This document shows positions 1 through 56,710 of a stretch of DNA of 64,000 nt, piece by piece. The translations under genes were made by a program, and so were the position numbers. Each line of letters begins with the position of its first letter. The stretch's first letter is position 1. The stretch covers positions 1-64,000 of IMG/VR virus record IMGVR_UViG_3300013005_000037. One strand, 5' to 3'. A model generated the notes under the pieces. The model saw only the letters and a list, made by a program, of their open reading frames with translations. It was not told where the DNA came from and ran no database searches. Source of the DNA: a virus (taxonomy: Duplodnaviria; Caudoviricetes).

Positions 1-61
1 TTTAACTAAATTTTAACTAAAATTAAATGCAATTATATTTTGTCAAACCAAAACACTTTAA

Positions 62-69
62 TATATTTG
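62..69 (+). promoter_or_regulatory. Bacteroidota sigma-A -7 box (TATATTTG)
   Basis: Exact TAnnTTTG match about 45 nt upstream of ORF 115. Confidence 0.65.
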
Positions 70-114
70 TACCAATGAACTGCTAATATTAATTAATATT
101 AAAAAAACAAGGGT

Positions 115-378
115 ATGGGAACAAGTTTATTTACTTACAAAGATATGTCTAATGATTTTATTGAAAATCAAATTATAGTACTTCAAGGTCATCCTACTTC
201 TGAAAAAGACCAAAAGGAAAAATTTAGTAATTTACTAAAGTTTAATACTCATAAGTTTGCCGAAGTTAAAGTTGGAATATTAAAATGTGATTTTTGCGGA
301 TACTCTATAAATTTTAAACCCATTCCTAAAAATGTAGAAATTTGTAAAAAAAATAAAATTAACATTAAAACAAAATAA
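115..378 (+). CDS. Hypothetical protein
   Basis: 87 aa ORF downstream of promoter; one CxxC. Confidence 0.6.
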   Translation: MGTSLFTYKDMSNDFIENQIIVLQGHPTSEKDQKEKFSNLLKFNTHKFAEVKVGILKCDFCGYSINFKPIPKNVEICKKNKINIKTK

Positions 379-11263: not shown

Positions 11264-11803
11264 ATGGATAATTTAGAAATCTGGAAAGATATAAACGGTT
11301 ACGAAGGATACTATCAAGTTTCAAATATTGGTAGAGTTAAGTCTTTAGCAAGGGTAATTGAATACAGAAAAGGTATTTATGGAAATAAAAAAGAAATTAT
11401 TTTAAAAACATTTAAAGATGGAAAAGGGTATTTAAAATATAAACTTTGTAAAAATGGAAAAGAAAAATCAGTTATATCACATAGATTAGTTGCTATTGCT
11501 TTTTTACATAATTTAAATCAAAAGCCAGAAGTTAATCATATAAACGGAATAAAAGATGATAACAGACTTGAAAATTTAGAATGGTGTACAAGTTCAGAAA
11601 ACACAATACACGCTTTAAACCAAAAACTTAAAATACCACAAAAAGGTTCAGAACACGGAATGTCAAAATTAACGGAAGAAAAAGTTTTAGAAATAAGATT
11701 AATAGGAAGAACAAAAACTACAAAAGAACTTGGCGAAATATATAATGTACATAGGACTTTAATTAGTCAAGTGTTATTAAATAAAATTTGGAATCACGTT
11801 TAA
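11264..11803 (+). CDS. NUMOD4-HNH homing endonuclease
   Basis: EIWKDINGYEGYYQVSNIGRVKS (NUMOD4); HRLVA...VNHINGIKDDNRLENLEW; C-terminal HTH. Confidence 0.93.
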   Translation: MDNLEIWKDINGYEGYYQVSNIGRVKSLARVIEYRKGIYGNKKEIILKTFKDGKGYLKYKLCKNGKEKSVISHRLVAIAFLHNLNQKPEVNHINGIKDDNRLENLEWCTSSENTIHALNQKLKIPQKGSEHGMSKLTEEKVLEIRLIGRTKTTKELGEIYNVHRTLISQVLLNKIWNHV

Positions 11804-11812
11804 GATAAAAAA

Positions 11813-14800
11813 ATGGCAAAAGGAAAAGTAAAATTAACCCAAAAAGGTGCTGAAAATTCTCCAGCTGGAGGTGTTGTTGTGGGAGAAAGAAATGGTCAAA
11901 CTATGATTTATGACGATGCTTCTGTTGGCGGTTATTTTGTGGGGAAAACACATAGTAAAGGCGGAATTAAAATGGTTAACAAATCTAGTGGGCAACAACT
12001 AGAAGTTCAAGGCTCGGAGGTTATTATTACTGCTCCAGCGGTTGCAGACCAAACCAAAAACGAGTTTAATGGTAAAATGATGACTAACAGAGAAGTGTTA
12101 TCTGCAATAAATGAAAAAGGTGGTGGCGTATCATTTGCTAAAGGTGGAGATATTCCTAAAAACATAAAACGTACTGGAGCAAGTTATAAGTATGGTGGTA
12201 AAACAATGACCGACCACGAAATATATAAAAAAATTACTGGAGGACATTTAGCCGAAGGAATGACACTTTCTAAAATTGCAAAAAAACATAATGTTTCTTT
12301 AAAGGATTTACAAAGACAAGTTGATATGGGTATGAAAGCTGAAAGCGAACATACTTCAAGCAAACGTGAGCAAATGAAAATTGTAAAAGACCATTTGTTT
12401 GAAAATCCAAAGTATTATTCTTTGCTAAAAAGAGCTGGATTAAAACACGGTGGCGCAGTTCGTAGAAGTAGTCTTGTTAGAGATTCAAAAAAAGGAAACA
12501 CACCAGCAAGGGATTTAAACAATTACAACGATGTTCTTGATATGGATGCCGATGGTGTATATGGTGCTGAAACTGGATTGTATGCTGGTGGAGGGGTAAC
12601 ACCATACGATGCAAATATGGAAGGAGATAGTGCTGATATGATGTTTGCAAAAGGGGGTGCTACTGATGTTGTTGTAGATAACTGGAGTGATATACCAGAT
12701 GAATTTAAAAACATAAGATTGCCAAAGCAAATTGATTGGAACGCAAACCCTAGCGATGATGGGTTAAATGAAATTGTAAAACCATTTTTAAGCAAAGAAC
12801 CATTAAGACCAGCGATGGAAGGTATAAACTTTGATGATAATGGAATAACAGTTACAAACGCACATATTTTATTAACTATACCTACGGTTGACCACGAGTT
12901 TCAAGGAATTTATAAAAAAGAAAAATTATCATCTAAATCTTTACAAGAAGTATTTCCAGATGGGGTTATAAAAATTGATGCAAAATTTCCAAATTACGAG
13001 CCAATAATTCCTAAACAATCAGAAATTAAAAAAGTTTTTTATGTTGATGTCTTAAAACTACTAACGTATTTTAAGGTAGCTAAAAACTATTCGGACAACA
13101 CGCAAATTATATTTAAAATTGATGGTTCAGAAATGTCTGTTGCTCCAGATTTAATGATTAATTTTTTAACCTCCTTAATCAAGCTTGGTGGTAATCAATT
13201 TATGTATGTTAGCTTTCAAACAGATAAAAGAGCTTTAATTTTTAGCTACTATTCAACTTTTTCGTTAGGCAAAGATGTTATTGGATTAATAATGCCTTAT
13301 GTTTTTGATAAAGGAGAAACTTACGGTGCAGTAAATGAAGAAAAAAAAGCAGAGTTAAATGTTTACTTTGACTTTGATTACAATGTAATTCGTAATGCTG
13401 ATGATAGTATTGTTGATTTAACTCCAAAGCCTACAAAAACAAGAGCTAAAAGAACGCCAAAGACAACTCAAAGTCAAACCAGTACACAAAAAAGTAAAAC
13501 CATTACCGATGAAGATGTTGAAATTAAAAAACTAATTTTAGAATTTATAAATCAAGCTGGTTGGATTTTAAAAAAAGAGATTAAGAAAAAAATAGGAGAA
13601 AGTTTTTATAAAGATTTTTATAAATCAGACCCGCCTACTATTTATCGATTAACCGCTATTACCGCAGAAGGATTATATCCTACTGACGAAAAAACATTAA
13701 AGTTTTTAGAGAAAATTGGAATGTATGATGACTATGAAGAACCAGTAAAAGAAACTTCGTCTGAAAAATTTACTGCTGGAGAAATTGATATGTTTAACCA
13801 AATAGATGCAATTGTTAATAGTTACGGTATAACAGTTGTAAGCACAATGTCTTGGAGTAAAGGCACATCAAAAACAACAGATTTTGATATAGTAAATACA
13901 TTAACTGGAGATGTTTTTGAATTAAGAAAATATAATCTCTCTTTAGGTGTTCAAGACGATGATATTGAAAAAGAAAAGTCAAGAGAATTAATTAAAGATT
14001 ATAATGAATGGAAAACATTAACGCCTACTAAAGATGTAGAAAAACAAGAAAAAGTAGAAGTTTTTAAATTAATTGGTTTATCAAGTGATGGAACTGAATC
14101 CGTTGTTGGGATTTATAGTGCTACTGAATTATTGAAAAATATAAAACGTTTAGAAAACACATTCCCATTTAGAGAAACATTCCCATTTCGTATTTACGAT
14201 AATAATGGTAAAGAATATGGTTCAATAACTTTTGGTAAAGGAATTACAACACTACCAGAACTTGAAATATCTATTATTGATAGTCCTATATTTGATGATT
14301 ATAATTGGACAGAATTTGTAAATTATGATAAAGAAATTACTCCATTTGAACAACCAAAACCGAGTAAAACCGAAAAACCAAAACGTAATTTTGAGTTAGA
14401 ACGTAAATACTTGTCGCAAAGGATTTCAGATTTGGCAAAAGAGTTGGATTTAAAAAAACCAATACTATCAAATGAAGAAGTTGCTTTTTACCAAAGAGAG
14501 ATTAATTCATTTATTTTAAAGTTAAGAAAACTTAACGATGCTGAAATGAGTTTAAAATCTATTGAGGAAAGAGTAAGGGGTGTATATGAATTAAAGATTT
14601 CAAGTTTTGACAATCAGTACACGGAAACAGATATGACCTCTATAAACGCCTTAAAATCGCAATTAACAGAAAAGGAATATTTTAATGTTAGAACGCCAGA
14701 GTTTAAATCGTTTTTTGGAGATTGGGAAACTGCGTATTTGAATGATAGTTATGCTGGAGTATCGAAAGTTATAAATCCAGTTACAAAAGAACCTCAACCA

Positions 14801-15391
14801 GTATTTCACGGAACAAACGTTTTATTTGTAAATTGGAAAACATACGACACTAACAACGCACATTATTTTGCAGTTAAAAGAGAGATGTCGGAGTTTTTTG
14901 CTACATCGTGGGAAACAAGAGCAGATAAAGCTGGGGTAGATTCTGAAATTCTTAAAAAGTTAAATCCAAATAGAGGTACTTTTTTATTAAGATGTTTTAT
15001 TGATGTAAAGAACCCAATTGATTTTTCAAGATTTGGTGTTGAAAAATATCCTATTAGAGAGTTTCTTACTTTTTTAAGGGTAAACTATAATATTGGAGAT
15101 TTTGATTTCTGGACTAACATAACTTCTCATAGCGGATTCACACAAGATACAGAAGTGTATGCTTGGCAGATAATTAGATTGTGGCAGTCTTTTACAAAAT
15201 ATGTAAAAGTGTTCACAACTTATGATGGTTATATTTTTTACGAATACATACCAACAAAACCTTATGGTGGATTAGAAAACGCATCGCTTTCTTATTGTGC
15301 TTTTGATAGCAACCAGATTAAGTTTACAGATGCCTACGAGTTTAACGCATTGTCTAATGATTCAAGATTTGATTTAGGAGGAATTTTATAA
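11813..15391 (+). CDS. Large polyvalent protein: GxxHxxGG N-domain, DUF5661-like, beta-clamp-like and ART-PolyVal-like ADP-ribosyltransferase domains
   Basis: GMKAESEHT...DHLFENPKYY; LRPAMEGINF...KFPNYEPIIP...GLIMP; VRTPEFKSFFGDWE...PVFHGT...YDGYIF...FDSNQIK. Confidence 0.8.
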   Translation: MAKGKVKLTQKGAENSPAGGVVVGERNGQTMIYDDASVGGYFVGKTHSKGGIKMVNKSSGQQLEVQGSEVIITAPAVADQTKNEFNGKMMTNREVLSAINEKGGGVSFAKGGDIPKNIKRTGASYKYGGKTMTDHEIYKKITGGHLAEGMTLSKIAKKHNVSLKDLQRQVDMGMKAESEHTSSKREQMKIVKDHLFENPKYYSLLKRAGLKHGGAVRRSSLVRDSKKGNTPARDLNNYNDVLDMDADGVYGAETGLYAGGGVTPYDANMEGDSADMMFAKGGATDVVVDNWSDIPDEFKNIRLPKQIDWNANPSDDGLNEIVKPFLSKEPLRPAMEGINFDDNGITVTNAHILLTIPTVDHEFQGIYKKEKLSSKSLQEVFPDGVIKIDAKFPNYEPIIPKQSEIKKVFYVDVLKLLTYFKVAKNYSDNTQIIFKIDGSEMSVAPDLMINFLTSLIKLGGNQFMYVSFQTDKRALIFSYYSTFSLGKDVIGLIMPYVFDKGETYGAVNEEKKAELNVYFDFDYNVIRNADDSIVDLTPKPTKTRAKRTPKTTQSQTSTQKSKTITDEDVEIKKLILEFINQAGWILKKEIKKKIGESFYKDFYKSDPPTIYRLTAITAEGLYPTDEKTLKFLEKIGMYDDYEEPVKETSSEKFTAGEIDMFNQIDAIVNSYGITVVSTMSWSKGTSKTTDFDIVNTLTGDVFELRKYNLSLGVQDDDIEKEKSRELIKDYNEWKTLTPTKDVEKQEKVEVFKLIGLSSDGTESVVGIYSATELLKNIKRLENTFPFRETFPFRIYDNNGKEYGSITFGKGITTLPELEISIIDSPIFDDYNWTEFVNYDKEITPFEQPKPSKTEKPKRNFELERKYLSQRISDLAKELDLKKPILSNEEVAFYQREINSFILKLRKLNDAEMSLKSIEERVRGVYELKISSFDNQYTETDMTSINALKSQLTEKEYFNVRTPEFKSFFGDWETAYLNDSYAGVSKVINPVTKEPQPVFHGTNVLFVNWKTYDTNNAHYFAVKREMSEFFATSWETRADKAGVDSEILKKLNPNRGTFLLRCFIDVKNPIDFSRFGVEKYPIREFLTFLRVNYNIGDFDFWTNITSHSGFTQDTEVYAWQIIRLWQSFTKYVKVFTTYDGYIFYEYIPTKPYGGLENASLSYCAFDSNQIKFTDAYEFNALSNDSRFDLGGIL

Positions 15392-15393
15392 AT

Positions 15394-16491
15394 ATGAATA
15401 TTCAAGAAAAAATAAAAGAGTTAGGATTAGTTCCTTTGTTTCCAGATTACTATTATTTTGATAGTAGTAAGTCAAGTGAAAATGATACTTTGAAAATAAA
15501 GTCTGATGAAGTTGATTTTCTTCAAAGAATGGTTTTTAAAAGAGAATTAATTGGATGTACTTTATACACAAAACTGGAAATTTTTAACGATACTTTTGAA
15601 AGTGAAATGAACTTCATTATAAGGCAAAAAGGCGAAAAAGTAGAAGAAATATACAGAGAAGAATATGAAAATTTAAAATTTGACAATTTGCCAGATGTTT
15701 TGAATTTTTTTAATGAAAAATATGAAATTGTTGCCAAAGTTTTTAATGAAATGCTACTTGAAAAATTGAAAGAGGAATTAGAGGAAGAAAAAAAGAAGCA
15801 AGAGGAAAAAGAACAACAAGAGCAAGAAAAGTCTGAACAAGAGCAAGGCGAAGAAGAAGGCGAAGAAGAAGGCGAAGGAGAAGGAGAAGGAGAAGGAGAA
15901 GGAGAAGGAGAAGGAGAAGGAGAAGGAGAAGGAGAAGGAGAAGGAGAAGGAGAAGGAGAAGGAGAGCCAAAGGAAATGTCGGCAAAAGATATTGAAAAAT
16001 TATTAGAGGAATTAAGCAAAGACCAAAAAGGGAAATCCAAACAAGGTCAAAACGATAATTCTGGAGATGAAATTGATTTAGAAGATTTTTTAGATAAGGT
16101 TGAACAAGGAGAAGCGGAAAACGATTTTACTAAAGGCTACAAAGACAAAGACCTTAAAGAAAAAATTGATGATGAAAAAGGTGGAGGGCAAGGAGAAGGA
16201 GAACCAGATGATATGGATTTTGATTTACCAGATTTTCCAGAGCCACCAGCCAATTCTGATAAAAGGATTGAAGGAGTTTTAGATGCTATTGTAGATATGC
16301 TAGATACTGACAAAGAAGATATTAAAAGACAATTCCCAACGCAAAAATCGGCAAAATCTTTTGTAAGTTTGTTGTCGCCAAATGAATTAGATTTTATAAC
16401 TACGCAAGTTGGCTTATCCGAAACTTTAAGTAGATTTGAAAAACAAAAATTAATAACAAGTAATTTCATAACAGAATTAGAAAACATATAA
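15394..16491 (+). CDS. Highly acidic protein with (EG)n tract
   Basis: 365 aa, E/D-rich centre; immediately upstream of the MoxR ATPase. Confidence 0.8.
   Translation: MNIQEKIKELGLVPLFPDYYYFDSSKSSENDTLKIKSDEVDFLQRMVFKRELIGCTLYTKLEIFNDTFESEMNFIIRQKGEKVEEIYREEYENLKFDNLPDVLNFFNEKYEIVAKVFNEMLLEKLKEELEEEKKKQEEKEQQEQEKSEQEQGEEEGEEEGEGEGEGEGEGEGEGEGEGEGEGEGEGEGEGEPKEMSAKDIEKLLEELSKDQKGKSKQGQNDNSGDEIDLEDFLDKVEQGEAENDFTKGYKDKDLKEKIDDEKGGGQGEGEPDDMDFDLPDFPEPPANSDKRIEGVLDAIVDMLDTDKEDIKRQFPTQKSAKSFVSLLSPNELDFITTQVGLSETLSRFEKQKLITSNFITELENI
15874..15963 (+). repeat. Perfect hexanucleotide repeat (GAAGGA)15
   Basis: Counted directly; in frame, encodes (EG)15. Confidence 0.95.
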
Positions 16492-16494
16492 ATT

Positions 16495-17862
16495 ATGACA
16501 AGAGAAGAATTAGAACTAGTAATTAGCGACACTACATTATCACAAGAAACAAGAGATGATGCTAAAGGTCAACTAGCAAAATTGGATGCCTTGCAAACTT
16601 CGTCTGGAGTACAAGGTATAAACAATGATATTTTATTTGCGGTACGAGAGTTTAATCAATCAATCGACAAATTGGCAAAAGCTGGTGTTGATAAGAAGCA
16701 AGTTGAAGATATTGTAGATGATAAATTCAGAGATACTAAAATTGGTAAAAATAATTTAGATTCTACTGTTTTAGAACTTATCGGAAAAACACAAACTGTT
16801 CAAATTATTAACTGGCAGAATGTTGTTGTTAAAACTGGAGATGGCAAGAAAAGAAAGATTTTTGATTTAATGCTTTCTGATTTTGAAGCTGGTAACAATA
16901 TTTACCTATACGGTGGTGCTGGAACTGGAAAAACCTTTATAGCAAAAGAAGTAGCAAACGCCTTAAACTACAAATTGATAACCTTGAACTGTAATCAATT
17001 TACTTCGCCTTTGGATATAGTTGGAGGGCAAACGATTGAGGGTTATCAAGAGGGTAGATTAATTGATGCCTTTGGATATACTGATGCAAGGAAAGAAATG
17101 AATAAAAGAACTGGAAAATATTTTTCTGGTGCAGTTTTATTATTAGATGAATTACCAAAACTTGACCCGAATACTGCTGGGGTATTAAATGATGGTTTAT
17201 CAAAAATTAAAGACCCTTCTGAAAGAACGCAAGATGGTTTAGAAATACGACCAGAAATTACGAATGGTAGAGGAGAAATTATTACAAAAGGAAATGTGTT
17301 TGTTATAGCAACTGGAAACTCTTTGTTAAATGAAGCTGATGTAAACTATGAAGCCAACTTTAAACAAGATTTATCGTTACAAGATAGGTTTGCTGGAAGC
17401 ACATACGAATTGATTATTGACCCACAATACGAATTAGATAATTTGATGTCTAATATTAAGATTGAAGATGAATTAGCAAATTTCACTTTTATTTTTAATT
17501 TCTTATTCAAATTAAGAACCGCAGTAGAGGACAATAATTTTTCAAGTAGAGCTTTTGTTTCTCAAAGGTTAATGATTTCTATGAGAGATACCTATATCGC
17601 TTTTAGACTTAACGAAAGACAAGGCGAAAAAAGAATAAAAAGTCCAAAAACTTTGCAAATTGCAGTTAAAACATTTTTAGATTTGTTTACAGAGCAACAA
17701 AGAAGTGTGTTGGAAGCTGATGTAAGAGTAGATGAATTTTTTGATTTAGTAAATAATAAAAATTTAAAACCGTTAGATTCTTTAGATTCTCCAGAGGACA
17801 AAACGGAAGCAAATTTATTGATTAAAGCATTTGATTTAAAAAACGCAAACAAAATTAAATAA
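16495..17862 (+). CDS. MoxR/CbbQ-like AAA+ ATPase
   Basis: Walker A GGAGTGKT, Walker B LLLDE, ATGN sensor, LQDRF. Confidence 0.88.
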   Translation: MTREELELVISDTTLSQETRDDAKGQLAKLDALQTSSGVQGINNDILFAVREFNQSIDKLAKAGVDKKQVEDIVDDKFRDTKIGKNNLDSTVLELIGKTQTVQIINWQNVVVKTGDGKKRKIFDLMLSDFEAGNNIYLYGGAGTGKTFIAKEVANALNYKLITLNCNQFTSPLDIVGGQTIEGYQEGRLIDAFGYTDARKEMNKRTGKYFSGAVLLLDELPKLDPNTAGVLNDGLSKIKDPSERTQDGLEIRPEITNGRGEIITKGNVFVIATGNSLLNEADVNYEANFKQDLSLQDRFAGSTYELIIDPQYELDNLMSNIKIEDELANFTFIFNFLFKLRTAVEDNNFSSRAFVSQRLMISMRDTYIAFRLNERQGEKRIKSPKTLQIAVKTFLDLFTEQQRSVLEADVRVDEFFDLVNNKNLKPLDSLDSPEDKTEANLLIKAFDLKNANKIK

Positions 17863-19436
17863 TGCCAAAAGCAAAAGATAATTATATAGTATTTGGATTT
17901 GACCCCTATAAGTTTATAGAGGAAGGATTGGATATTGTAAAAAAAGATGGTTTAAGGACAATTTATAGCGAAAGTTCAGTTACAAGCGGTATGAGTGTCA
18001 GTGGTAAAGATTACAATTGGCACGGATATAAAAGCGGTTCGTCAAAATCTTTTGCAGAGCAATTTGATGTTAATTCTGGATTAGGAAGTTTTTTAGACCA
18101 AGATTTATTAACAAAGGTAGAGCAAGTTTATTCCAATATAAATGCCAAGTTAGATTTAGGTGGAGATTTTAAAGCATCGAGAATTAGATTTACTGAAAAA
18201 CCATTAGGAATATTTTCATTTGCACAAGCTAGTAAAGGTTTGATTAGACCAGTAGAATATTATTCAAAAGAGGAAAATAAAATAATACCTCCAGATGATG
18301 TTTTTAAGGGCGAATTTAAGGAGCTAGATTATTTTTATTATAAACACGATGGCAGAGAAGTTATTGTGGAAAGAAGGCAAGAAGGCACTACAAAGATAGC
18401 CGAGAGTTGCACCGATGTACTTTTAAAAGAAGATGAACAAAGCAAATTGTTTTTGCCATACAATGCAGAAGGTAAAATTGTAAACGAGTGTAAAGGAAAT
18501 AAATTGAGATATGCTACAACCACAAAAAAGGTTTATGCTTATCGAGAAAAAAAAGGTGGAGGTATTGCTCCTTATGTAGATTTATACATTTCTACTGGCG
18601 GTATAGGTAGTGTTAATCCAGAACAAATGATTATACGTTCATTGCCAAATATTCTATTATCAAGGATATTGGAAAAAGCTGGTGTAAGGGTTAGAATATT
18701 TGCTTATTGGTCAAATAGAGATTACAATAAAGACAGAGATTTTAACACTATGTTTATGTTAAAAAACTATGGAGAAACTATTGATTTAAACAAGATTGCA
18801 GTATTTTCTTCTGATACACGTTTTTATAGATATTGGTTAGCAAACTCAACTGTTGGTTGGTATAAATTTATGTGTGGAGATGCTAAAAGTGGTTTTGACA
18901 CAACTGGTACGCTTGACCCAACAACGTTTATGAGAGATATTTTACCAATGGTTAGAAACTATGTAAGCTATAAAATCAATGTAGGAGAATTTCCATCGCA
19001 AGTTGTAAATAAGAAATTGATGTTATTTGCAAATATGGATGTTGATGGTAGCGACAAAATAGAAACTCCAGAAATTGAGAAAAAAGTAATTGAAAAGTTT
19101 TATTCTATTTTAGATTATATTCAAATGCAGTTATCCAATACTCCAAGAAAGGTGTTGCAAGACATTATTAAAAGAGAAAAGGATAATGGAAAGTCTGAAA
19201 GTGAAATTAAAAGATATATTAGAAGCTCAATTACCAATGTATTGTCGCCAACCAAAGAATTTCAAAAACAAAGTCCAGCAGAATTGAAAAAGATGTTGGA
19301 TAGCGGAAGTTTGACTAAAAAGGAATACGAAGAAAAATTAAGAGTGGAGATTATGTTAGACACACCGAAAGATGCAGATGATATAATCGAGGAGAGAGAA
19401 AAATTATTAAATATATTAAATACTTTAATACTATAA
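17862..19436 (+). CDS. Degenerate vWA-like partner of the MoxR ATPase
   Basis: VDLYISTGG...LSRILEKAGVRVRIF...LKNYGETIDLNKIA; directly coupled to the MoxR gene. Confidence 0.55.
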   Translation: MPKAKDNYIVFGFDPYKFIEEGLDIVKKDGLRTIYSESSVTSGMSVSGKDYNWHGYKSGSSKSFAEQFDVNSGLGSFLDQDLLTKVEQVYSNINAKLDLGGDFKASRIRFTEKPLGIFSFAQASKGLIRPVEYYSKEENKIIPPDDVFKGEFKELDYFYYKHDGREVIVERRQEGTTKIAESCTDVLLKEDEQSKLFLPYNAEGKIVNECKGNKLRYATTTKKVYAYREKKGGGIAPYVDLYISTGGIGSVNPEQMIIRSLPNILLSRILEKAGVRVRIFAYWSNRDYNKDRDFNTMFMLKNYGETIDLNKIAVFSSDTRFYRYWLANSTVGWYKFMCGDAKSGFDTTGTLDPTTFMRDILPMVRNYVSYKINVGEFPSQVVNKKLMLFANMDVDGSDKIETPEIEKKVIEKFYSILDYIQMQLSNTPRKVLQDIIKREKDNGKSESEIKRYIRSSITNVLSPTKEFQKQSPAELKKMLDSGSLTKKEYEEKLRVEIMLDTPKDADDIIEEREKLLNILNTLIL

Positions 19437-19439
19437 AAA

Positions 19440-21149
19440 ATGAATTTAGATAGAATTAGTATAAAAATGGGTGGTGCAAATACATCGTATATGTCTTTAG
19501 CTAAAATTTCTGATTTTAGTAAGTTATATACAACTATCTTATTTATAGAAAAATCAAGTCCTCAAAAAATAAATACTGGAGATAGTATTCAAGCGTTTAA
19601 TTTTAAAAATATTGAACAATTTAAAGGATTAAGACCATTTAATGCTTATACGCAAGAACAATTGCTTTTTTTGTATAATCAATATGGTTCAGATTTTCTA
19701 TATCAAACAAAGCTTCATTCTGGGGATTTAGTTAGGTATAATGGATTGAAGTATGTAGTATTAGGTATTGTGGTAAACACATACGCACAATGGAATATGC
19801 CAACACCTTTGTTGTTTAATCCAACTAACGTAAATAACGATTACAAATCTTTATACGGAAGCAGATTAACCGAAGAACAAATTAACAATAAAATCAATGA
19901 TAATTTCCAAGCTGGAAAATATGATGCTGATATGGTTATTCCTTTGGTAGATGCAAATGATTTTTCAGAATACATAACTGTAATAGAGCCAAGACCAACA
20001 AAGGAAGAAGTAGAATTAATGTTTGATTCAGTTAAAGCAGAAAAAGACCTTACAATTAAATCTCAAAAGGATGTTTTTATTGATACTATGTTGCGTTTGA
20101 GAGGTAATGAAATAAATAAAATCAAAGAGGTTAATGAAGATTTATTTAAAGGTGTTCAAACTTTGTTATTGTCGGTAAATAAAGCGGTAAACGAGCAAAT
20201 AGAAATGCTACCAGAACCAGCAGTTGAAAAACCAGCAAGAAAACCAAGAGAGAAAAAAGTTGTTGAAGAAGTAGAGCCAGTTGTGGAAATAGATTCAGAT
20301 GAATTGCCAGATTTTATTGCTGAATTTACAATTGTAAAAGATTTGCCAGAGCCAATTATCAAATTAGCTCGTTTTAGAAGAAAAAAGCAAGGTAAAAGGG
20401 GAGATATTGATTTAGGACTTACATTAACAAGTGCTTTTAATTGGGATGATAGTTCAGAAGGTTTAAATTTTTGGATGAAAATATCAAATAAAGGCGATTT
20501 AAGAGAGTTCAAAAAACTTTATGGTAACAAAGGAGAAAAGGTTGATACATTAATTGCAAAAGAACCAAAAGTTACAACGCAAGAAGTTAAACGTGTAGAT
20601 ATAATTTTATATCCACCAGAGGGAGGGGTTTTAGAAATTAAAACAGATTGTTTGTATGAATTATTTGAGGTTAGTAGATTTGTTTTAACTAAATATAAAA
20701 GCACTACAAGAAAGTTTAATTTTCAAGTAATTACAGATTCTGGAAGTCATACAACAGAACTTTATTTTAGCGGAGATGATTCACAAGATGAATTTTTAAA
20801 ATCATTAGTTGAACGGTATTATACTTTTGTAAAGCCAGAATTAAACTGGAAAAATTTTGATGAAAGACAAGCTGATATTGATAAGATTAAATTAAACGAA
20901 GAAATTATAAATGATGCTTATCCAGAACCAAAACCAAAACCAGTTGAAAAACCAAAACCAGTAGCGGTAGAAAAACCAAAACCAGTTAAAATAGAAAAGC
21001 CAAAGCCAGTTAAGGTAGAGAAGCCAAAACCAGTTGTAGTTGAAAAGCCAAAACCAGTCAAGGTAGAAAAACCAAAACCAGTTAAAGTAACAAAACCAAA
21101 AGTGGAAGATGACCTTTCCTTTTTAGATGATTTAGACAATATATTTTAA
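19440..21149 (+). CDS. Multidomain protein with Pro/Lys-rich C-terminal repeats
   Basis: 569 aa; AFNWDDSSEGLNFW motif; (KPKPVxxE)n followed by an acidic aromatic tail. Confidence 0.75.
   Translation: MNLDRISIKMGGANTSYMSLAKISDFSKLYTTILFIEKSSPQKINTGDSIQAFNFKNIEQFKGLRPFNAYTQEQLLFLYNQYGSDFLYQTKLHSGDLVRYNGLKYVVLGIVVNTYAQWNMPTPLLFNPTNVNNDYKSLYGSRLTEEQINNKINDNFQAGKYDADMVIPLVDANDFSEYITVIEPRPTKEEVELMFDSVKAEKDLTIKSQKDVFIDTMLRLRGNEINKIKEVNEDLFKGVQTLLLSVNKAVNEQIEMLPEPAVEKPARKPREKKVVEEVEPVVEIDSDELPDFIAEFTIVKDLPEPIIKLARFRRKKQGKRGDIDLGLTLTSAFNWDDSSEGLNFWMKISNKGDLREFKKLYGNKGEKVDTLIAKEPKVTTQEVKRVDIILYPPEGGVLEIKTDCLYELFEVSRFVLTKYKSTTRKFNFQVITDSGSHTTELYFSGDDSQDEFLKSLVERYYTFVKPELNWKNFDERQADIDKIKLNEEIINDAYPEPKPKPVEKPKPVAVEKPKPVKIEKPKPVKVEKPKPVVVEKPKPVKVEKPKPVKVTKPKVEDDLSFLDDLDNIF
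20921..21100 (+). repeat. Imperfect 24-nt coding repeat (EKPKPVxx, about 6 units)
   Basis: Visible in both DNA and protein. Confidence 0.85.
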
Positions 21150-21160
21150 AAACAAAGATT

Positions 21161-23926
21161 ATGACTATTAAACAAAAATTCAGTTCAATTGACCAAAGCA
21201 AATTAACTGCCGACCAAAAATCATTTTTAGATAAAATTAAAAATGTAACAAAAAACTTTTCCGATGCTGAAATGAATAAAAAGGTGGAACAACCTTTGGA
21301 TAACTTTATTTCAAAAGCAAAAGAAAAAATGCCAGAAGCAATTAAGTCTGCTCCAGTAAAAAAAACTGCTAGTGCTAAACCAAGTCAAACCAGAAAACCA
21401 AAACGTACTGCAATGTCTTTGGCTAAAGAAATTCGTAAAGAAGGCGAAAGTTGGTCGGATGCAAGAGCAAGAGCAAGTAAAATGATGAAAGAAGATAGTA
21501 AGGATTTAAGCAAAACTGTTGAAACCGAACTTGACAAATTAAGTAAACTTGTAAAAAGTGCAAAAACAAGAGCTAAACTTGCTGGTATTTCTGGTACTGA
21601 TATTAAAAGAGATGCGGTAAGAAGGGCAAAACCAAGAGGTGCAAGAAAGGTAACTCACTCTGGAGAAACTTCTAATCAATATGGAACGTTTAGTAATAAG
21701 CTAGGTAGAAAATACTACGAGAGTAGAGATAGGCACTCTGATAGACTTGCTCCAAATTATCCAAAAAATGCTCCTTTGTTAGAAAATGGTGCGTATTTGA
21801 CAGACCCTACATTTGGTAGTTTTCAAAATCAAGTTTTAGCCGAAGGTGGAGATATTAATGCCTTTACTTTAAGAATGGTAAAAAGCAATGGTATGCAACC
21901 AGCGGAAGTTTTGAAAGAAGATACAAATGTAAAATATGCTGGTGGTGGAATATTTGGAAGTAGCAGACCAAAGTCAGCTTTAATGAGAGATAGAAAAAAT
22001 GTAAATCATTCAGAAGATTATGAAGTAAGATATTCTAAACCAAGACCAAGTAGAAGTGGTTATAGCGGTAATAGAAAATTTGCTGGAGGAGGTAGAGTAG
22101 AATCTTTAACTAAAGAATTGCATAAACTTCAAAGAGAGCTTAATAGCAGTCGTTTAAGTACTTATATAGAAGGAGATGTTTCACAAGAAGCTATTAATAG
22201 AGAAAATGAAAGAGCAGTAAAACTTGCTCGTTTTAATGAAGTTTTGAAAGAATTAAGAGAATCAGATGCAAAATTTGCATTAGGTGGAACTGTTGTTTCA
22301 GATTTAGCTGGACACACTGCTGGTGGCGATGGAGGTTTAAATGCTGGTATGCCTTTAGATGGTTTTAGCAATACTTCTTATACTGGATTAGTTGGAGAAA
22401 CTGGTGCGATGTCAAGTGGAGAAATGTTTATGGCTGGTGGTTCTGTTAATCCAAAATTTGATTTAACTGGTTTTAAAATGTTGAGAATGTTTAAAACTTT
22501 AATTGAAGCAAAAAATTATGCCGATGAATCAAGAAAAAAATTTCCTAATGAAAAAACAATAGTAATTGATACTGGTAAAGACACCTATCCTTATGAAGTT
22601 TACGGAACTGAATCTTTTAATAAAGGCAAATTTGGTAACAGAGTTTATGCAAATGGTGGTGGACTTCCAGAATTTTCACAACAATCTTATATGATTACAG
22701 AAGCATTAGGAAACCCAGCACAACATTTTAAAGTTGGAGGTACAATAAAAAATCAATATGATGGAAGAACGCCAGAAGATATTTGGGATAGTTTAAGTAT
22801 TCAACAAAGAAAGCATTTTTTATTAGACCATTACTATATTAATGAAGAAGAATTTGAGCAACTTCAATATAAGCGTTTAGAATCAGAAGATAAAGAAATT
22901 ATTGATTATTACGCTAATAGAACTTGGAAAAAATTATCTGGAGATGTTAGAAAAGCATTTACTTCTCACGTTAAAGAAGGTCAATATAATAAAGGCGGTG
23001 CATTAACAAACGAAAGATTACACGTTAACCACGATGAAGATTACGAAGTAAGATACGCTAAACCAAGACCAAGTAGAAAAGGTTACAAAGGAGTAAGAAA
23101 ATTTATGGCTGGAGGAATGAACGAAAACACACCAAGAATTTACGTTGCTGATTTAGAAGCCTACAATAGCGGAAGATTAGTTGGAGAATGGTTGGATTTA
23201 GCTGACTATAACGATGCTGATGAATTAATGGATGCTATTCAAAATTTATTAGATGGTTGGGGAGTTGAGGAATATGCTATTCACGATGTTGAGTATGTAC
23301 CAAGCAGTATGTATTCAGAATATATGGGCGAAAGAGATTTTAAACAATTATATGAAATGATGGATTTAGCAAAAGATAACAATTTGCCATTAGAAGTAGT
23401 TCAAGAAATTGTTAGTCAATATAGCGAAAGTGCAGTTGATGAATTTCAAGGGAAATACGATAGCGCAACTGATTTTGCTGAACAATTAGTAGATGATTTA
23501 GGTGGTATTCAAAACTTTAATGATTTTGAGTATTATTTAGATATTTATGAAACTGATAGAAGATTATTAGCGCAAGAAATGGCTGATAGCTATGTAGATG
23601 ATATTGTAGGCGAAGATGGCGGAAATAGAATAATTGAGGAAGCTGGTTTAAATGTTGACGAGTACGAAGATGCAAGTGAGGAAACTAAAGAAGAATTGAT
23701 TGATTTGGCAAGAAGTATGGTTTATGATGAATATTACGATACTTGGTACGAAGGATTAAATGACCCTTATAACTTTTTAGTAGAAGAACAAGGAATGTAT
23801 GATGCTGAAAGTTTTGCCAACGCAAGTTTTGTAAGAGTTGATTATGATAAATTAGCAGAAGCATTAGAGCAAGATTATACTATGATTAGCTACGATGGAG
23901 ATGTTTATGTGTTTAATATTAGATAA
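21161..23926 (+). CDS. Polyvalent/polyprotein-like protein with C-terminal ArdA anti-restriction domain
   Basis: After FMAGG: MNENTPRIYVADLEAYNSGRLVGEWLDL...EEYAIHD, strongly acidic (23117-23926); nine hydrophobic-x-x-GG motifs. Confidence 0.85.
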   Translation: MTIKQKFSSIDQSKLTADQKSFLDKIKNVTKNFSDAEMNKKVEQPLDNFISKAKEKMPEAIKSAPVKKTASAKPSQTRKPKRTAMSLAKEIRKEGESWSDARARASKMMKEDSKDLSKTVETELDKLSKLVKSAKTRAKLAGISGTDIKRDAVRRAKPRGARKVTHSGETSNQYGTFSNKLGRKYYESRDRHSDRLAPNYPKNAPLLENGAYLTDPTFGSFQNQVLAEGGDINAFTLRMVKSNGMQPAEVLKEDTNVKYAGGGIFGSSRPKSALMRDRKNVNHSEDYEVRYSKPRPSRSGYSGNRKFAGGGRVESLTKELHKLQRELNSSRLSTYIEGDVSQEAINRENERAVKLARFNEVLKELRESDAKFALGGTVVSDLAGHTAGGDGGLNAGMPLDGFSNTSYTGLVGETGAMSSGEMFMAGGSVNPKFDLTGFKMLRMFKTLIEAKNYADESRKKFPNEKTIVIDTGKDTYPYEVYGTESFNKGKFGNRVYANGGGLPEFSQQSYMITEALGNPAQHFKVGGTIKNQYDGRTPEDIWDSLSIQQRKHFLLDHYYINEEEFEQLQYKRLESEDKEIIDYYANRTWKKLSGDVRKAFTSHVKEGQYNKGGALTNERLHVNHDEDYEVRYAKPRPSRKGYKGVRKFMAGGMNENTPRIYVADLEAYNSGRLVGEWLDLADYNDADELMDAIQNLLDGWGVEEYAIHDVEYVPSSMYSEYMGERDFKQLYEMMDLAKDNNLPLEVVQEIVSQYSESAVDEFQGKYDSATDFAEQLVDDLGGIQNFNDFEYYLDIYETDRRLLAQEMADSYVDDIVGEDGGNRIIEEAGLNVDEYEDASEETKEELIDLARSMVYDEYYDTWYEGLNDPYNFLVEEQGMYDAESFANASFVRVDYDKLAEALEQDYTMISYDGDVYVFNIR

Positions 23927-23934
23927 TTAAAAGT

Positions 23935-25137
23935 ATGAAAGAGATTAAAAAAAGTGCCAGTTTTACAAGTAAGCAAAAAGGTAAAGATGTAAAATTCAAT
24001 ATTGATTTGAATTATAGTCCAGAATACGATAGTTTTATTATTAAAATAAAAGAGGGCGAAGGATTTATGGCTTATAGTTCAAATATTGAACGTATGCCTT
24101 TAAAGGTAATTCAAAAGCTAAATGAAATGCTGGAAGAAGTTTTGATTAAAGCTGGTTCTGAAACAGAAATGGAAAAACAAAAAATGTCAAATGGTGGCGA
24201 TTTCCAAGCTGGGGTTTATGCTAAAGGCGGTTCGCTTCAAGCACACGGAATTGAAATAGGAGATACATTTGTAAAAACTATTTCTGGAAACATTCAGAAA
24301 ATAAAAGATAAAAACGGAAAAATTGTTTACGTTGATTTATCTACTGGAGAAAGAGATTCACAACCACCACTACCTTTTGAAAATGGTGGTGGAATTGGTA
24401 TGGAAGAAGATAAAGATACTTGGCAAAATTTATTAGAGCAATTTGGATTCAAAAAGGGTCGAAGTAGGTATGGTTTAGATATGTATTATAAGAATGGTTA
24501 TACTGCTTCTGTTGATAAAAATTTAAGAAACGTTGATTTAATGTTTGAAGATAATGTTCTTTACAAAGGATATAGTATTCAAGGTTTATTATATACGTTA
24601 GAAAATCAATTTGGAAAAACCAAAATGGCTACTGGAGGTGCGTTAGTAGGAAACCAAAAGCGTATTGATATGAACAAAAATGGTAAAATTGATGCAGAGG
24701 ATTTTAAACTTTTGCGTTCTAGTATGAATGGTGCGTGGAGAAACGAAAGGAAACACGTTAATCATAATGAAGATTACGAAGTACGTTATGCCAGAAAAAA
24801 ACCAAGCCGAACTGGTTACAAAGGTAAAAGGAAATTTGAAGGTGGCGGTGGAATATCAAACTTTGAAAGATTTTCAAACGTAGTAGCCAAGAATTACGAA
24901 GGAAAGTCAGTTAAACCAAAGTACCAAAAAGAGTATGGCAAAACGTATAGTAAGTCAGAAGCTAAACAAGTTGGTAATAGGGTAGCTGGAAAAGTTAAAA
25001 TGATGAAAAAAGCTGAATCTGGTGCAGAAGTAAAAAAAGGCAATAGAGGTGGAGTTATGGTTTTAGCTAAAAAAATTCGTAAGGATGGAGAGAGCTGGAA
25101 GGATGCTTTGAAAAGAGCTGGACAACAACTGAAATAA
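23935..25137 (+). CDS. Basic repeat-containing protein sharing modules with the ArdA polyprotein
   Basis: Five hydrophobic-x-x-GG motifs; NHNEDYEVRY and LAKKIRKDGESW modules; DMNKNGKIDAED EF-hand-like loop. Confidence 0.8.
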   Translation: MKEIKKSASFTSKQKGKDVKFNIDLNYSPEYDSFIIKIKEGEGFMAYSSNIERMPLKVIQKLNEMLEEVLIKAGSETEMEKQKMSNGGDFQAGVYAKGGSLQAHGIEIGDTFVKTISGNIQKIKDKNGKIVYVDLSTGERDSQPPLPFENGGGIGMEEDKDTWQNLLEQFGFKKGRSRYGLDMYYKNGYTASVDKNLRNVDLMFEDNVLYKGYSIQGLLYTLENQFGKTKMATGGALVGNQKRIDMNKNGKIDAEDFKLLRSSMNGAWRNERKHVNHNEDYEVRYARKKPSRTGYKGKRKFEGGGGISNFERFSNVVAKNYEGKSVKPKYQKEYGKTYSKSEAKQVGNRVAGKVKMMKKAESGAEVKKGNRGGVMVLAKKIRKDGESWKDALKRAGQQLK

Positions 25138-29066: not shown

Positions 29067-29390
29067 ATGGAAGCACCAGCAGTAGCAACACCAGATGTAG
29101 CACCAGCACCAGCACAAGCAGTAGCACCACCAGCAGTAGCACCAGCACCTCAAATGGCAGATGGTGGAGCAATGGATTCAGTTGCAAAACCAAAAATGAA
29201 TACAAAAGATATTATCATTAGCTTATTGCTAATTACTGTATCTATTTACGGAATTGTTTATTACAGAAAAGCAATCAAAACTCTTGACGAACAAATAACG
29301 CCAGAAGAATTTGATAACATTGCTGGAATGGTAGATGAACACGATGTGAACTTGAAAAAAGCTTTGGGTGGTAAATATAAAAAAATGTAG
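29067..29390 (+). CDS. Membrane protein with Ala/Pro-rich leader ending in MADGG
   Basis: AP-rich N-terminus, GG motif, TM. Confidence 0.75.
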   Translation: MEAPAVATPDVAPAPAQAVAPPAVAPAPQMADGGAMDSVAKPKMNTKDIIISLLLITVSIYGIVYYRKAIKTLDEQITPEEFDNIAGMVDEHDVNLKKALGGKYKKM

Positions 29391-36964: not shown

Positions 36965-37660
36965 ATGTCAAATGTTCGTAAATATTTAGCCAATGCACAA
37001 AGAAATGCAATGGAATCTTTCTCAAACGCTGATGGTTTTATCGATAACGATTTATCGTTCACTGGAGAGGACTTTTTCAACGCTGGAGGAATGGGGGGCG
37101 GAAACGTTCAAACTTCACAACCATACATATTAGATATTACATCTACTAGTGGTTCAGCAGTTACAAATTTTGAAGTATTAGGTTCTTACCAATACATCAA
37201 CAACGCTGGTTTCCAAGCAAATGGAGATTTAGTAATTGGTTCAATCACAATTAGCTCTGGTATTTCAGATGTTAACTATCGTGAAATGTTATACCAATTT
37301 ATGAATAATCCTTATTCAGTTGGTTTAACTTACATTCAGTCTGCAACTGCAAACCAAGTGTTAGAAACTCTTTCTGTTAACACAAGAGATTCAAATGGTA
37401 ATTTAGCGCAAAAAACACTTGTGCCTACAATTGACCCATACCAACAACAAACTAACATTATCGCTATGAAGTATGCGTATAGAATTGATGGTTTCACTAA
37501 AATTATCATTCGTCAAGTATTGGCAAATGCTACTGTGAAATTATACTTCTACCCAGCAGACAACATAAACCTTGCAAGAGCTTTAGGTGGTAATTCAGTA
37601 AGCAGACAATTCGGTACACCTCCAGTTACTAATGGTCAAACTATTAGAATTAAAGGATAA
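36965..37660 (+). CDS. Candidate major capsid protein (beta-rich, single jelly-roll size)
   Basis: 231 aa, alternating beta pattern, no TM; TAC/ATC/AAC/TTC/CGT codon bias suggesting high expression; near the ATPase; strong terminator downstream. Confidence 0.6.
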   Translation: MSNVRKYLANAQRNAMESFSNADGFIDNDLSFTGEDFFNAGGMGGGNVQTSQPYILDITSTSGSAVTNFEVLGSYQYINNAGFQANGDLVIGSITISSGISDVNYREMLYQFMNNPYSVGLTYIQSATANQVLETLSVNTRDSNGNLAQKTLVPTIDPYQQQTNIIAMKYAYRIDGFTKIIIRQVLANATVKLYFYPADNINLARALGGNSVSRQFGTPPVTNGQTIRIKG

Positions 37661-40153: not shown

Positions 40154-40939
40154 ATGAATTTTAGAATACAGACTAGATACGATGAAATGTGTTTGTGCGT
40201 AAAAATATCGTGTTCAACCCCAACGGTTGTAAGGATTAAAATTTACGATGAAGAAAAGCCTAAAATTGTATTTACCGATAGGTATAAAACAGTTTCAAGT
40301 GCAGAAACATTTTACATTAGATTACCTATAACATCAAAATCGGTTATTCTTTCCGTATATGACGATAAAAAAGGTAATACACCAAAAGAGCAAGAGAAAA
40401 ACATAAGCGTAGTGTCTATTGATAAAACGCCTTTAGAAAAAAGAATGGATGTCGTAGATATTCAAAACAAAAGCGTAAAGCATTTTGTAGATTTTGCACA
40501 AAGATTTTGTTTTAATGCGCCATATTTGGAAACTGGAAAAACATATCAGTCAGACAACGGAGAGTTTATGATTGAGTATTTGCCACAAATAATAAATCAA
40601 GATGGTAGAGTTTTGACGACACCAGCAAGGATTTCAAGAGTTACTGGCAGAATACAAGTTTCTAAAAAACAATTTGACGATTATACAGTTCCTATGCGTT
40701 TTGCTATTCTTTGCCACGAGTTTAGTCATTTTTACGTTAATGATAATATGGATGATGAATCAGAAGCCGACATCAATGGTTTGTTGATTTATTTAGGATT
40801 AGGATACCCACGAATTGAAGGATACCAAGCGTTTCTGGAAGTATTTAAAGATGCTCCTAACCAAAACAATAAAAAGCGTTTTGATAGAATTGATAATTTT
40901 ATTAAAAACTTTGAGAAAAATAAAATGGTAATAAGATAA
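40154..40939 (+). CDS. Zincin metalloprotease (M48-like), candidate maturation protease
   Basis: AILCHEFSHF...DDESEADINGL (HExxH plus downstream ExxAD); soluble gene among membrane structural genes. Confidence 0.75.
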   Translation: MNFRIQTRYDEMCLCVKISCSTPTVVRIKIYDEEKPKIVFTDRYKTVSSAETFYIRLPITSKSVILSVYDDKKGNTPKEQEKNISVVSIDKTPLEKRMDVVDIQNKSVKHFVDFAQRFCFNAPYLETGKTYQSDNGEFMIEYLPQIINQDGRVLTTPARISRVTGRIQVSKKQFDDYTVPMRFAILCHEFSHFYVNDNMDDESEADINGLLIYLGLGYPRIEGYQAFLEVFKDAPNQNNKKRFDRIDNFIKNFEKNKMVIR

Positions 40940-47056: not shown

Positions 47057-47362
47057 ATGGCTTTAGCAAGAAAACCAGTAGTTAAAAAAAGTACAATAGA
47101 AGTTAGTGCATCAGATATAGAATGGATAAAACAAACTCTTTCTTCTGTAAGTTCAAAAATTCAAGATTTAGATATGAGTTTTACAAAACTAAATCAAACT
47201 GTAATTGGAGATAAAACGTATGGTCAAACTGGTTTAATTGAAAAAGTCGATGAACATACTGCATATATTGAAAAAGATAAAGAATTTAAGTCAAGACTAG
47301 TAGGCGGTGGATTAGTGCTTTCCTTTTTATGGGGATTGGTGCTAAAGTTTTGGAAAATCTAA
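47057..47362 (+). CDS. Coiled-coil protein with C-terminal TM (holin-like)
   Basis: Coiled coil, then GGGLVLSFLWGLVLKFW. Confidence 0.6.
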   Translation: MALARKPVVKKSTIEVSASDIEWIKQTLSSVSSKIQDLDMSFTKLNQTVIGDKTYGQTGLIEKVDEHTAYIEKDKEFKSRLVGGGLVLSFLWGLVLKFWKI

Positions 47363-47379
47363 AAATAAAATAATATAAA

Positions 47380-50300: not shown

Positions 50301-50436
50301 TGTATTAAGTACTGTTAACTCAACTACTTTTGATACTACAATCAATAACACATTAGTTATAACCGCACAATGGAATACAAATAATGCTGGTAATTCAATA
50401 TTGTCAAGAAATTTTGTCTTATTTAAAGTATATTAA
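47380..50436 (+). CDS. Cys-rich Gly-Gly repeat fibre/adhesin 1
   Basis: Dozens of 14-aa repeats xxST[IV]GGGxxNTAS (YadA-head-like beta-roll), distinct C-terminal beta domain. Confidence 0.8.
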   Translation: MGNVTKSQQNNITSPNGNSLAVFVEGTTGVMKVKDVMGNIQPLSDFVSGGGGGSSPFKYATCNPTGIVPCLGNNSAFGGYSTVAGGQVNSATGYISFIGGGQINSASGNSSTISGGYCNTASNCGSTIGGGGVNTASGISSTVGGGILNTASALSSTISGGQENTASAPTSTIGGGFYNTASNYGATVGGGYCNTASGACSTVGGGQGNSASDCYSTVGGGGYNTASNDYSTVSGGFLNTASGASATIGGGSDNTVSGFYSTIGGGRFNTTSGCASTIGGGLCNTASASYATVGGGQGNSANYSHSTVGGGLNNTASQYTSTIGGGYCNISSNSYSVVGGGSCNIASGSGSTISGGCANISSNAYSSVGGGRQNTASGTRSTIGGGYINIASGSISTVGGGCCNNASDCYSTVGGGVFNTASCYFSTIGGGANNTASGASATIGGGQDNTVSGFYSTIGGGRFNTTSATYSTVGAGNCNITNSRYSFIGGGQRNVIQSPTDECCSFGATIGGGIGNNTNGGYFDNITGNLGGSITCCNAGRLSTIGGGLRNCATGYLSTVGGGQCNTASCTFSTIGGGFTNIASSFYSTISGGKINIASGDNSAIGGGSNNTAGGLVATIGGGNLNTASGVNSFIGGGSQNTTSGSYSTTTGGYCNITSGDYSIIGGGTYNIVSGNTSTIGGGSTNIACGISSTIGGGNSNTTNCNASTIGGGFCNTANCDSSTIAGGAYNLSCKNASFVGGGCFNSSTGDRTVIGGGFCNTASGNCSTIGGGCSNIASGYHTAILGGCNNDTCGFANSMIIGSNLCATQTCTTFMNCASVDNLTQGSLVCVGANKVLEDSLLNVSTINSGLFAQTTDSAPVTATAVETSIIGVGVGTLSVPANAFTIGNSFVARLDGVISAVGTATLDIKIKTLSGALLADTGAIAMDATTAKSWTLDIEFTVRTLGGVGVASISSGGLFSYIKNSGLNFEGYVLSTVNSTTFDTTINNTLVITAQWNTNNAGNSILSRNFVLFKVY

Positions 50437-50447
50437 AAAATAAAATA

Positions 50448-53060: not shown

Positions 53061-53072
53061 AAATAAAATATT

Positions 53073-53333
53073 ATGAATAAATTAGAAATAGTTGTCGGAA
53101 GTTTACAAATATCAAAAGATGGTGTAATAATACTTGTTATACCAAAAGATGCGTGTGCTATTGATACATTAGCTTTAGCAAATGCAACGCCTACTGCTTT
53201 AATTTTTAATAAATATTTGGCTAACTTTACACCAGTATTTAATACACCTTTGTCAAGTTGTGTAGATTCAACTAATACTGTGTTTACACCAAGTACGTTT
53301 ATAGCTTTTGCGGAAGCTAATTTAGGATTTTAA
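53073..53333 (+). CDS. Stand-alone paralog of the fibre 3 N-terminal domain
   Basis: KLEIVxGSLQIS...CAID...FAEANLGF aligns end to end. Confidence 0.85.
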   Translation: MNKLEIVVGSLQISKDGVIILVIPKDACAIDTLALANATPTALIFNKYLANFTPVFNTPLSSCVDSTNTVFTPSTFIAFAEANLGF

Positions 53334-53344
53334 AAAAAAAGATT

Positions 53345-56688: not shown

Positions 56689-56696
56689 AATTTTAT

Positions 56697-56704: not shown

Positions 56705-56710
56705 AACCGA

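Follow-up and report, generated by a model that had tools for sequence, protein, structure and literature searches.

Three large proteins encoded by an uncultured virus are punctuated by a short peptide, here called the joint, with the consensus [FY]-x-x-G-G-x-[VLI], in which M also occurs at the first position. Their genes lie in the first 64,000 nucleotides (the window) of IMG/VR record IMGVR_UViG_3300013005_000037, a linear and complete genome of 72,545 bp, and are named here, like the other genes of the window, by the position at which they start: 11813, 21161, and 23935. Judged by their domains, all three are polyvalent proteins sensu Iyer et al. 2017, and the joint may well be the recognition and cleavage site that punctuates such cargo proteins and marks leaders and tails elsewhere, the best-supported reading and one for which we consider the balance about even. 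The giant proteins would be produced as precursors, and a virus protease, most likely the stand-alone zincin 40154, would cut them at or beside the joints, either in the particle or on delivery. The pieces released would be an acidic ArdA DNA mimic and an ART-like enzyme, along with folded modules of small size and short peptides that are basic or conserved. What the analysis shows is the motif itself, where it is placed and how well it is conserved, that cassettes are exchanged at it, how the zincin is distributed, and that its active-site motif is intact. An original prediction, made from the letters of the window, had proposed that hydrophobic-x-x-Gly-Gly motifs delimit domains of protease-processed polyproteins of injected effectors, and overall this interpretation is partly supported. 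The three proteins, all on the + strand, and the nucleotide positions of their joints are:

11813..15391, + strand: polyvalent protein 1, 1192 aa, 6 joints: FAKGG (12134-12148), YKYGG (12185-12199), LKHGG (12440-12454), (L)YAGGG (12578-12595), FAKGG (12644-12658), and FDLGG (15368-15382)
21161..23926, + strand: polyvalent protein 2, 921 aa, 9 joints: 21836-21850, 21935-21949, 22079-22093, 22274-22288, 22427-22441, 22646-22663, 22727-22741, 22985-22999, and 23102-23116
23935..25137, + strand: polyvalent protein 3, 400 aa, 5 joints: 24184-24198, 24217-24231, 24376-24393, 24625-24639, and 24835-24852

The joint and the modules that it separates

All of the motifs that had been reported in these three proteins, and in the small protein 29067 described below, are present, and the enrichment that had been suggested as a check was found. 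Together the three proteins have 18 occurrences of [FYM]xxGG, whereas 5000 composition-preserving shuffles gave 2.03 +/- 1.41 and never more than 8, and F, Y, or M stands at position -3 in 14 of their 32 GG runs (background 0.125, p = 1e-5). The remaining proteins of the window, with three Gly-rich fibre-like proteins left out, hold ~5 copies in ~15,000 aa. For comparison, 72 unrelated phage loci were examined: none of their 197 open reading frames with a length of 400 aa or more has over 2 copies, and the median is 0.

Homologues of the N-terminal two thirds of 21161 (aa 1-660) number more than 480, all metagenomic and many on contigs of 65-73 kb, and the best 120 homologues of 21161 were used for the conservation and cassette statistics. 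Among their 1574 GG runs, the -3 residue is F in 38% and Y in 18% (56% F/Y), and V, L, or I is found at +3 from the first Gly, two residues past the pair, in 53%. At the eight joints of 21161 that start with F or Y, the aromatic residue is kept in 80-100% of the homologues and the GG in 96-100%, with the middle two residues varying, and at the remaining joint, LAEGG, the first position is mixed F/L. The Gly codons of the joints include all four, in the proportions of the bulk, and the middle codons differ from joint to joint; hence it is the peptide that is conserved and not a DNA repeat.

The modules between the joints are of several kinds, and the cargo-type domains that had been predicted gave Pfam matches, the ART-like one below its cut-off. 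Protein 11813 consists of a conserved N-terminal module, DUF5661 (aa 154-207, 42.7 bits), a clamp-like region, and an ART-PolyVal-like C-terminus (aa 993-1171, 26.3 bits, which is under the cut-off of 31.2); a phmmer comparison of this C-terminus with PDB sequences was uninformative, as was one for the ATPase candidate. Protein 21161 has a basic helical N-terminus (net +22), eight short cassettes, and an acidic ArdA domain (net -55; aa 660-795, 71.2 bits vs a cut-off of 27), and the presence of these opposite charges in one chain is a reason to separate them. In protein 23935 there are an EF-hand-like mini-module and a basic cassette, and a 'LAKKIRKDGESW' module lies at its C-terminus. The assignment to the polyvalent class follows from the ArdA, DUF5661, and ART-PolyVal-like domains, together with GNAT and DUF2958 in relatives: unrelated effector-type domains share one chain, hallmark domains are among them, and they are shuffled among relatives.

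Joints stand at the edges of these domains as had been described. ArdA begins directly after FMAGG (aa 648-652), with Met653 at nt 23117; DUF5661 lies between YKYGG (aa 125-129) and LKHGG (aa 210-214); and the ART-like domain precedes FDLGG (aa 1186-1190), after which just 2 residues remain, the orthologues likewise ending 2-3 residues past the joint. An AlphaFold2 (AF2) model of 21161, built from 120 sequences, is confident for residues 1-132, 311-369, 430-484, 538-605, and ArdA at 656-921, with stretches of predicted local distance difference test (pLDDT) score < 50 between them. Eight of the nine joints are wholly within the pLDDT < 50 segments, the ninth ends exactly at a boundary, and each folded internal module has a joint 1-16 residues away on both sides, so that in the model the joints sit in predicted disordered linkers that bracket folded modules. 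The same arrangement is seen in a distant relative, G020, whose zincin is 49% identical: in its orthologue with 12 joints, DUF5824, GNAT, DUF3140, DUF5661, and ART-PolyVal (45 bits) are separated from one another by joints, and of the 12 just LKAGG (aa 101-105), which is weak, is located within a domain hit.

The suggestion that domains are swapped at the motifs was borne out by the homologues. Cutting the 120 sequences at the motif and clustering the pieces gave 97 different cassette orders, and 16.6% of 1223 insertions have both ends within 5 residues of a joint, compared with 1.9% for random placement. The alignments contain clean gains and losses of cassettes from joint to joint. For example, a 136-residue cassette of 23935 is gone from an orthologue that is 83% identical. 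In the 315-aa orthologue of L002-L006, what is missing is precisely the part that runs from YAKGG to MATGG. Cassettes also swap between the two adjacent polyprotein genes.

The joint is not confined to the giant proteins, and two further genes of the window carry it:

29067..29390, + strand: small single-pass membrane protein with a variable Pro/Ala-rich leader ending in MADGG
36965..37660, + strand: candidate capsid protein, 231 aa, very conserved, with a joint-like site at ~aa 36-44 (FFNAGG, nt 37076-37090)

Among 13 aligned orthologues of 29067, the leader differs in both sequence and length and is followed by a conserved body, and [MYF]xxGG stands right before that body in 12 of the 13, the alignment of the other (L097) beginning at DGG. 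In the 36965 family, DDFF-x(2-3)-GG is kept in four genomes at a varying distance right before a conserved TSQPYI core; 36965 received no function from PHROGs and nothing from the ESM Atlas. Five single-domain effectors of the relatives G007 and G009 end in [YMF]xxGG plus a shared tail of 15-20 residues (..PDYL[KR]MFLG), and in three of them the N-terminal sequence is, as judged by eye and not scored with Pfam, the one found in 11813 ahead of its ART-PolyVal-like region. Joints at a leader, before a tail, and at an extreme C-terminus point to a recognition element, since a plain flexible linker would not be expected to persist there.

Several other features of these proteins were recorded. The tailed effectors stand alone beside polyprotein 1 (L139:9475-12359 in G007; L145, at 47238-48435 of G009), and their tail '..ES.TPDYL[KR]MFLG', a candidate targeting peptide, is absent from the genome of the window. 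The N-terminal module of 11813 (aa 40-75, window 11930-12030) has the pattern 'GG.F.GK.H..GGI...(I/L)EV.G.EVI.T', which is kept in polyprotein 1 of relatives; by eye it resembles 'GG..(H).GE.V.T' after the GG sites of the tape measure proteins lambda gpH and T5 pb2, a homology that BLASTP did not support. The cassette '..DLAGHT..GLVGETGAMSSGEMF..GG' (21161 aa 377-427, window 22289-22441) is the best-conserved part of 21161, with ~25 residues invariant over 18 diverse homologues even though it is predicted to be disordered, and it may have a function as a peptide, perhaps that of a cofactor or of a segment active on membranes. A basic module, 'LAKxIRKxGESWxDAxxRA', is common to the N-terminal area of 21161 (window 21410-21480) and the C-terminus of 23935 (25050-25134) and is also C-terminal in orthologues of G007, G009, and G010, with a conceivable role in DNA binding or targeting. 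The EF-hand/dockerin-like mini-module 'GNQKRIDMNKNGKIDAEDFKLLR' of 23935 (aa 236-272, window 24640-24750) is found in ~70 otherwise unrelated viral contigs of up to 364 kb, in proteins without joints. An AAA_5 (MoxR/CobS-like) ATPase (window 16495-17862) is conserved, and every relative examined has it located between its polyprotein genes. The sole 'joint' of this ATPase, YLYGG, was rejected as a false positive, being at the start of the AAA domain hit (aa 136) and probably in the P-loop region.

The zincin 40154 and the PPPDE-like protein 60136

Two genes had been put forward as the source of the processing enzyme, and they fared differently: the distribution of 40154 among relatives fits the role and that of 60136 does not.

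40154..40939, + strand: stand-alone zincin, 261 aa, with a beta-sandwich (aa 1-96) and an M48-like metalloprotease domain (aa 124-257)
60136..60612, + strand: accessory second candidate, a membrane-anchored protein of PPPDE/LRAT-like papain fold that has the motif NCEHFV and ends in a hydrophobic helix

The active-site motif of 40154 is intact. HEFxH (HExxH) is invariant, and H188, E189, H192, E202, E204, and D206 are unchanged in 12 sequences down to 55% identity, so that the HExxH and the downstream acidic third ligand expected of M48/gluzincin enzymes are both present. The AF2 model has a pLDDT of 85, and the best fold match of aa 124-256 is BepA (6sar_A), with a middling score (VIA-align Z 8.1 over 118 residues, rmsd 4.3). 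Searches with other methods yielded little: Foldseek found nothing at E <= 0.001, 12 members of the family gave weak Pfam matches to M48 (2/12, E 0.015) and SprT-like (6/12, E 0.013), the ESM Atlas provided weak leads only (DUF4344 0.85, M48 0.82), and PHROGs had no function for 40154 or for the genes of the 60136 region.

The zincin is encoded in all 15 relatives that were reached via the polyprotein, at 56-89% identity, and its family comprises 722 representative clusters. In the best 150 of these representatives it is nearly always a stand-alone protein of ~240-300 aa, with a few shorter pieces; the longest has 333 aa, and none lies inside a giant protein. There are 67 further viral loci with the zincin, and of five that were read fully, four carry joint-rich large proteins and the fifth a few joints. 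These five more distant genomes were reached by the zincin alone, and the contigs of two other distant relatives were too short to assess co-occurrence. Three of the five have terminal inverted repeats of 123-653 bp. Consistent co-occurrence with joint-rich polyproteins was found for 40154 and not for 60136, and 40154 is the leading candidate for the processing enzyme.

Protein 60136 scores 30.3 bits with Pfam Peptidase_C97 (cut-off 29.2) and 18.3 bits with LRAT, under the cut-off of 24.3. Of 32 relatives, 10 have it (8/15 and 2/17), and it is absent from three complete genomes with 15 to 31 joints in their richest protein, and on this distribution it was rejected as a general joint enzyme. 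It could instead be an acyltransferase or phospholipase of a virion membrane and not a peptidase. Its gene overlaps the start of an NHL-repeat propeller gene (60549-61796).

Known processing systems and rival explanations

Cleavage of precursors at short codes is established in several virus groups. The adenovirus protease (adenain) and pS273R of African swine fever virus cut virion precursors at Gly-Gly sites, and the analogy with these enzymes, drawn in the original prediction, stands as a functional likeness: a short hydrophobic-x-G-G type code borders pieces of core or virion precursors, some of which are basic peptides. It does not extend to the details, however. Here the aromatic residue is three residues before the GG rather than two, one place further than the P4 hydrophobic residue of adenain, and the enzyme put forward is a metalloprotease. 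A clan CE protease was not detected: six-frame searches of the complete genome with the models for C5 (PF00770) and C48 (PF02902) had no hit at E <= 1, though a very divergent member could escape them. In T4 (gp21) and phiKZ-like phages, the prohead protease cuts packaged internal head proteins at a short code with Glu at P1. There too the code is short and repeated, and some of the cut proteins are anti-defence proteins delivered with the DNA, whereas the code and the protease fold are different, and no S77/S78-type protease was found here.

Two bodies of work show that the statement that such a system is not described for phages was too strong. Iyer, Burroughs, Anand, de Souza, and Aravind (2017) proposed the processing of polyvalent proteins by zincin-like metallopeptidases (PMC5512222), so that zincin processing had been predicted in print. 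The polyvalent proteins of that paper are like those described here in being giant multi-domain chains with ArdA, ART-PolyVal, and uncharacterised domains that are extensively shuffled. They differ in that a term search of the paper gave no defined junction motif, the words 'linker' and 'glycine' being absent from it; in that the zincin here is a separate, universally conserved M48-like gene rather than a domain of the polyprotein; and in that the genome here ends in inverted repeats and shows none of the hallmark genes of tailed phages. Tape measure proteins that are cut have been described as well: lambda gpH matures to gpH* and gpHC, and T5 pb2 to pb2* and pb2C (PMC12617516; bioRxiv 10.1101/2022.09.20.507954). 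A search of the literature for the pentapeptides or for Gly-Gly polyprotein processing in phages found nothing relevant.

The tape measure parallel bears directly on how the joint is to be read. Lambda gpH loses a ~14 kDa fragment from its Gly-rich C-terminal region, at an unmapped site and by an unidentified agent (PMC12617516), and we find FATGG (aa 733-737) and YATGG (aa 778-782) in this Gly-rich C-terminal part; a cut after FATGG would yield a calculated 12.2 kDa. In T5 pb2 the single C-terminal GG (aa 1130-1131) adjoins the reported start of the 92-residue pb2C, in the non-aromatic context RAEGG. Relatedness between these proteins and those of the window is not apparent. The TIGR01541 model, which gives 448.7 bits with lambda gpH, did not match the three window proteins or those of two relatives at E <= 1, the tape measure model PF10145 did not match the proteins here, and BLASTP against the lambda gpH C-terminus was not significant, so that no significant similarity to gpH emerged past the pentapeptide. 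A wider reading would take aromatic-x-x-Gly-Gly as a 'cargo release' code widely shared among phages, used by this virus group and by the tape measures of tailed phages, including lambda gpH, with a dedicated stand-alone M48-like zincin of this group cutting polyvalent precursors in the particle into the ArdA mimic, an ADP-ribosyltransferase, and adenovirus-like basic core peptides; this appears rather doubtful to us. The parallel does widen the likely range of the code, and it weakens the case for 40154 as its sole reader.

Cleavage at the joint is favored by the enrichment of the motif, its conservation as a peptide, its placement in linkers, the modularity of the proteins, its use outside linkers, and the distribution and fold of the zincin. 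That the joints are cut, by which enzyme and at exactly which bond, and that the proteins are packaged or delivered, is inferred. Several points weigh on the other side. Joints are not at every domain border: aa 283-1185 of 11813 contain several domains and no joint. The 15 of 15 relatives with the zincin were picked via polyprotein homology and so represent one lineage and not 15 independent tests. We know of no preference of M48-type zincins for Gly-Gly, and 40154 could serve another role. The polyprotein genes are upstream of the presumed structural block, and it is by inference that their products are placed in the particle. Finally, FATGG and YATGG also occur in lambda, where such a zincin is missing, and the code might therefore be read by an enzyme other than 40154.

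The main rival explanation is that the joint is left uncut and serves either as a short docking motif, a multivalent packaging signal for the capsid, the membrane, or a chaperone such as the AAA+ ATPase 16495, or as a preferred structural joint, with the polyvalent proteins acting whole. We regard this as possible, if on the improbable side. Joints at the extreme C-terminus or before a conserved tail would suit a binding tag equally well, as would their location in disordered linkers and a conserved AAA_5 ATPase encoded between the polyprotein genes, and the polyvalent proteins N4 virion RNA polymerase, ArdC, and TraC1 are transferred uncut (PMC5512222). However, the variable and dispensable-looking leader before the joint of the 29067 family suggests that it is removed, up to 31 copies per protein are many for a docking tag, and a strongly basic N-terminus (+22) and ArdA (-55) would be likely to disturb one another if they stayed in the same chain. 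That the motif is a mere by-product of cassette exchange, a DNA-level recombination joint, or a chance or compositional feature is very improbable. Cassettes do exchange at the joints, but the aromatic residue and GG are conserved inside orthologous cassettes, the motif is also kept in the non-modular proteins 36965 and the 29067 family, and the observed count was never reached in the shuffles. The nucleotide sequences of the joints differ, with the Gly codons in bulk proportions and the middle codons varying, and on this ground a DNA-level repeat was rejected, which largely refutes the by-product explanation.

It is also conceivable, and in our view unlikely, that the joints are cut by something other than 40154, that is, by the PPPDE/DeSI-like 60136, by a host protease, by an unrecognised virus protease, or by self-cleavage. 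Protein 60136 is above the Pfam cut-off for Peptidase_C97, the characterised members of which cut after the C-terminal Gly-Gly of SUMO or ubiquitin, and lambda, which is without this zincin, has gpH cut in a Gly-rich region by an unidentified agent (PMC12617516). Against this, 60136 is missing from 22 of the 32 relatives, among them the complete joint-rich genomes described above, and its NCEHFV motif and C-terminal membrane helix would suit acyltransferases of the LRAT/PLAAT type just as well. Searches of the genome for further protease families, namely C5, C48, S78 and S77 (prohead), Clp, JAB, and NlpC/P60, detected none of them.

The virus group and the significance of the joint

The virus is known solely from metagenomes. 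Its genome, of which the window comprises 64 kb, has a G+C content of ~30% and perfect 123-bp inverted terminal repeats (window 1-123 and genome 72423-72545; L001), and the corresponding repeats in relatives are 127 bp (G010 and G018), 653 bp (G020), and 123 bp (G029). Neither megablast nor tblastn found near relatives of the genome or the polyproteins among cultured phages, and searches of the latter with the polyproteins gave DUF5661 and scattered short matches, nothing more; the DUF5661 protein of a Flavobacterium myophage is without joints. The genome was also compared with the Pfam models of terminase, portal, HK97 capsid, and tape measure proteins and with that of the protein-primed family B polymerase (PF03175); none of them matched, which is an absence of evidence. 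From these genomes the virus group appears to be large, undescribed, and abundant, with genomes of 55-100 kb, inverted terminal repeats, and no detectable tailed-phage hallmark genes.

Other neighbouring genes of the window include an HNH/NUMOD4 homing-type endonuclease (11264-11803) directly upstream of polyprotein 1, with a second NUMOD4/HNH protein elsewhere in the genome. Three large Gly-rich proteins (20-22% Gly) are encoded at 47380-55375, in a segment with a G+C content of 35-37% vs 30%, and a sulfotransferase/APS kinase cassette (55870-58403) lies downstream of it.

If the joints are cut, polyvalent proteins would gain a processing code that is concrete and can be tested, as well as an enzyme candidate to go with it, where processing had so far been a general prediction. 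It would then become possible to predict which mature anti-defence products are made by hundreds of uncultured viruses. The same peptide is found in the Gly-rich C-terminal part of lambda gpH, where the agent and the site of cutting have been unidentified for 40 years, and lambda could therefore be used to test what the code means. The virus group that carries the joints is itself uncharacterised and abundant.

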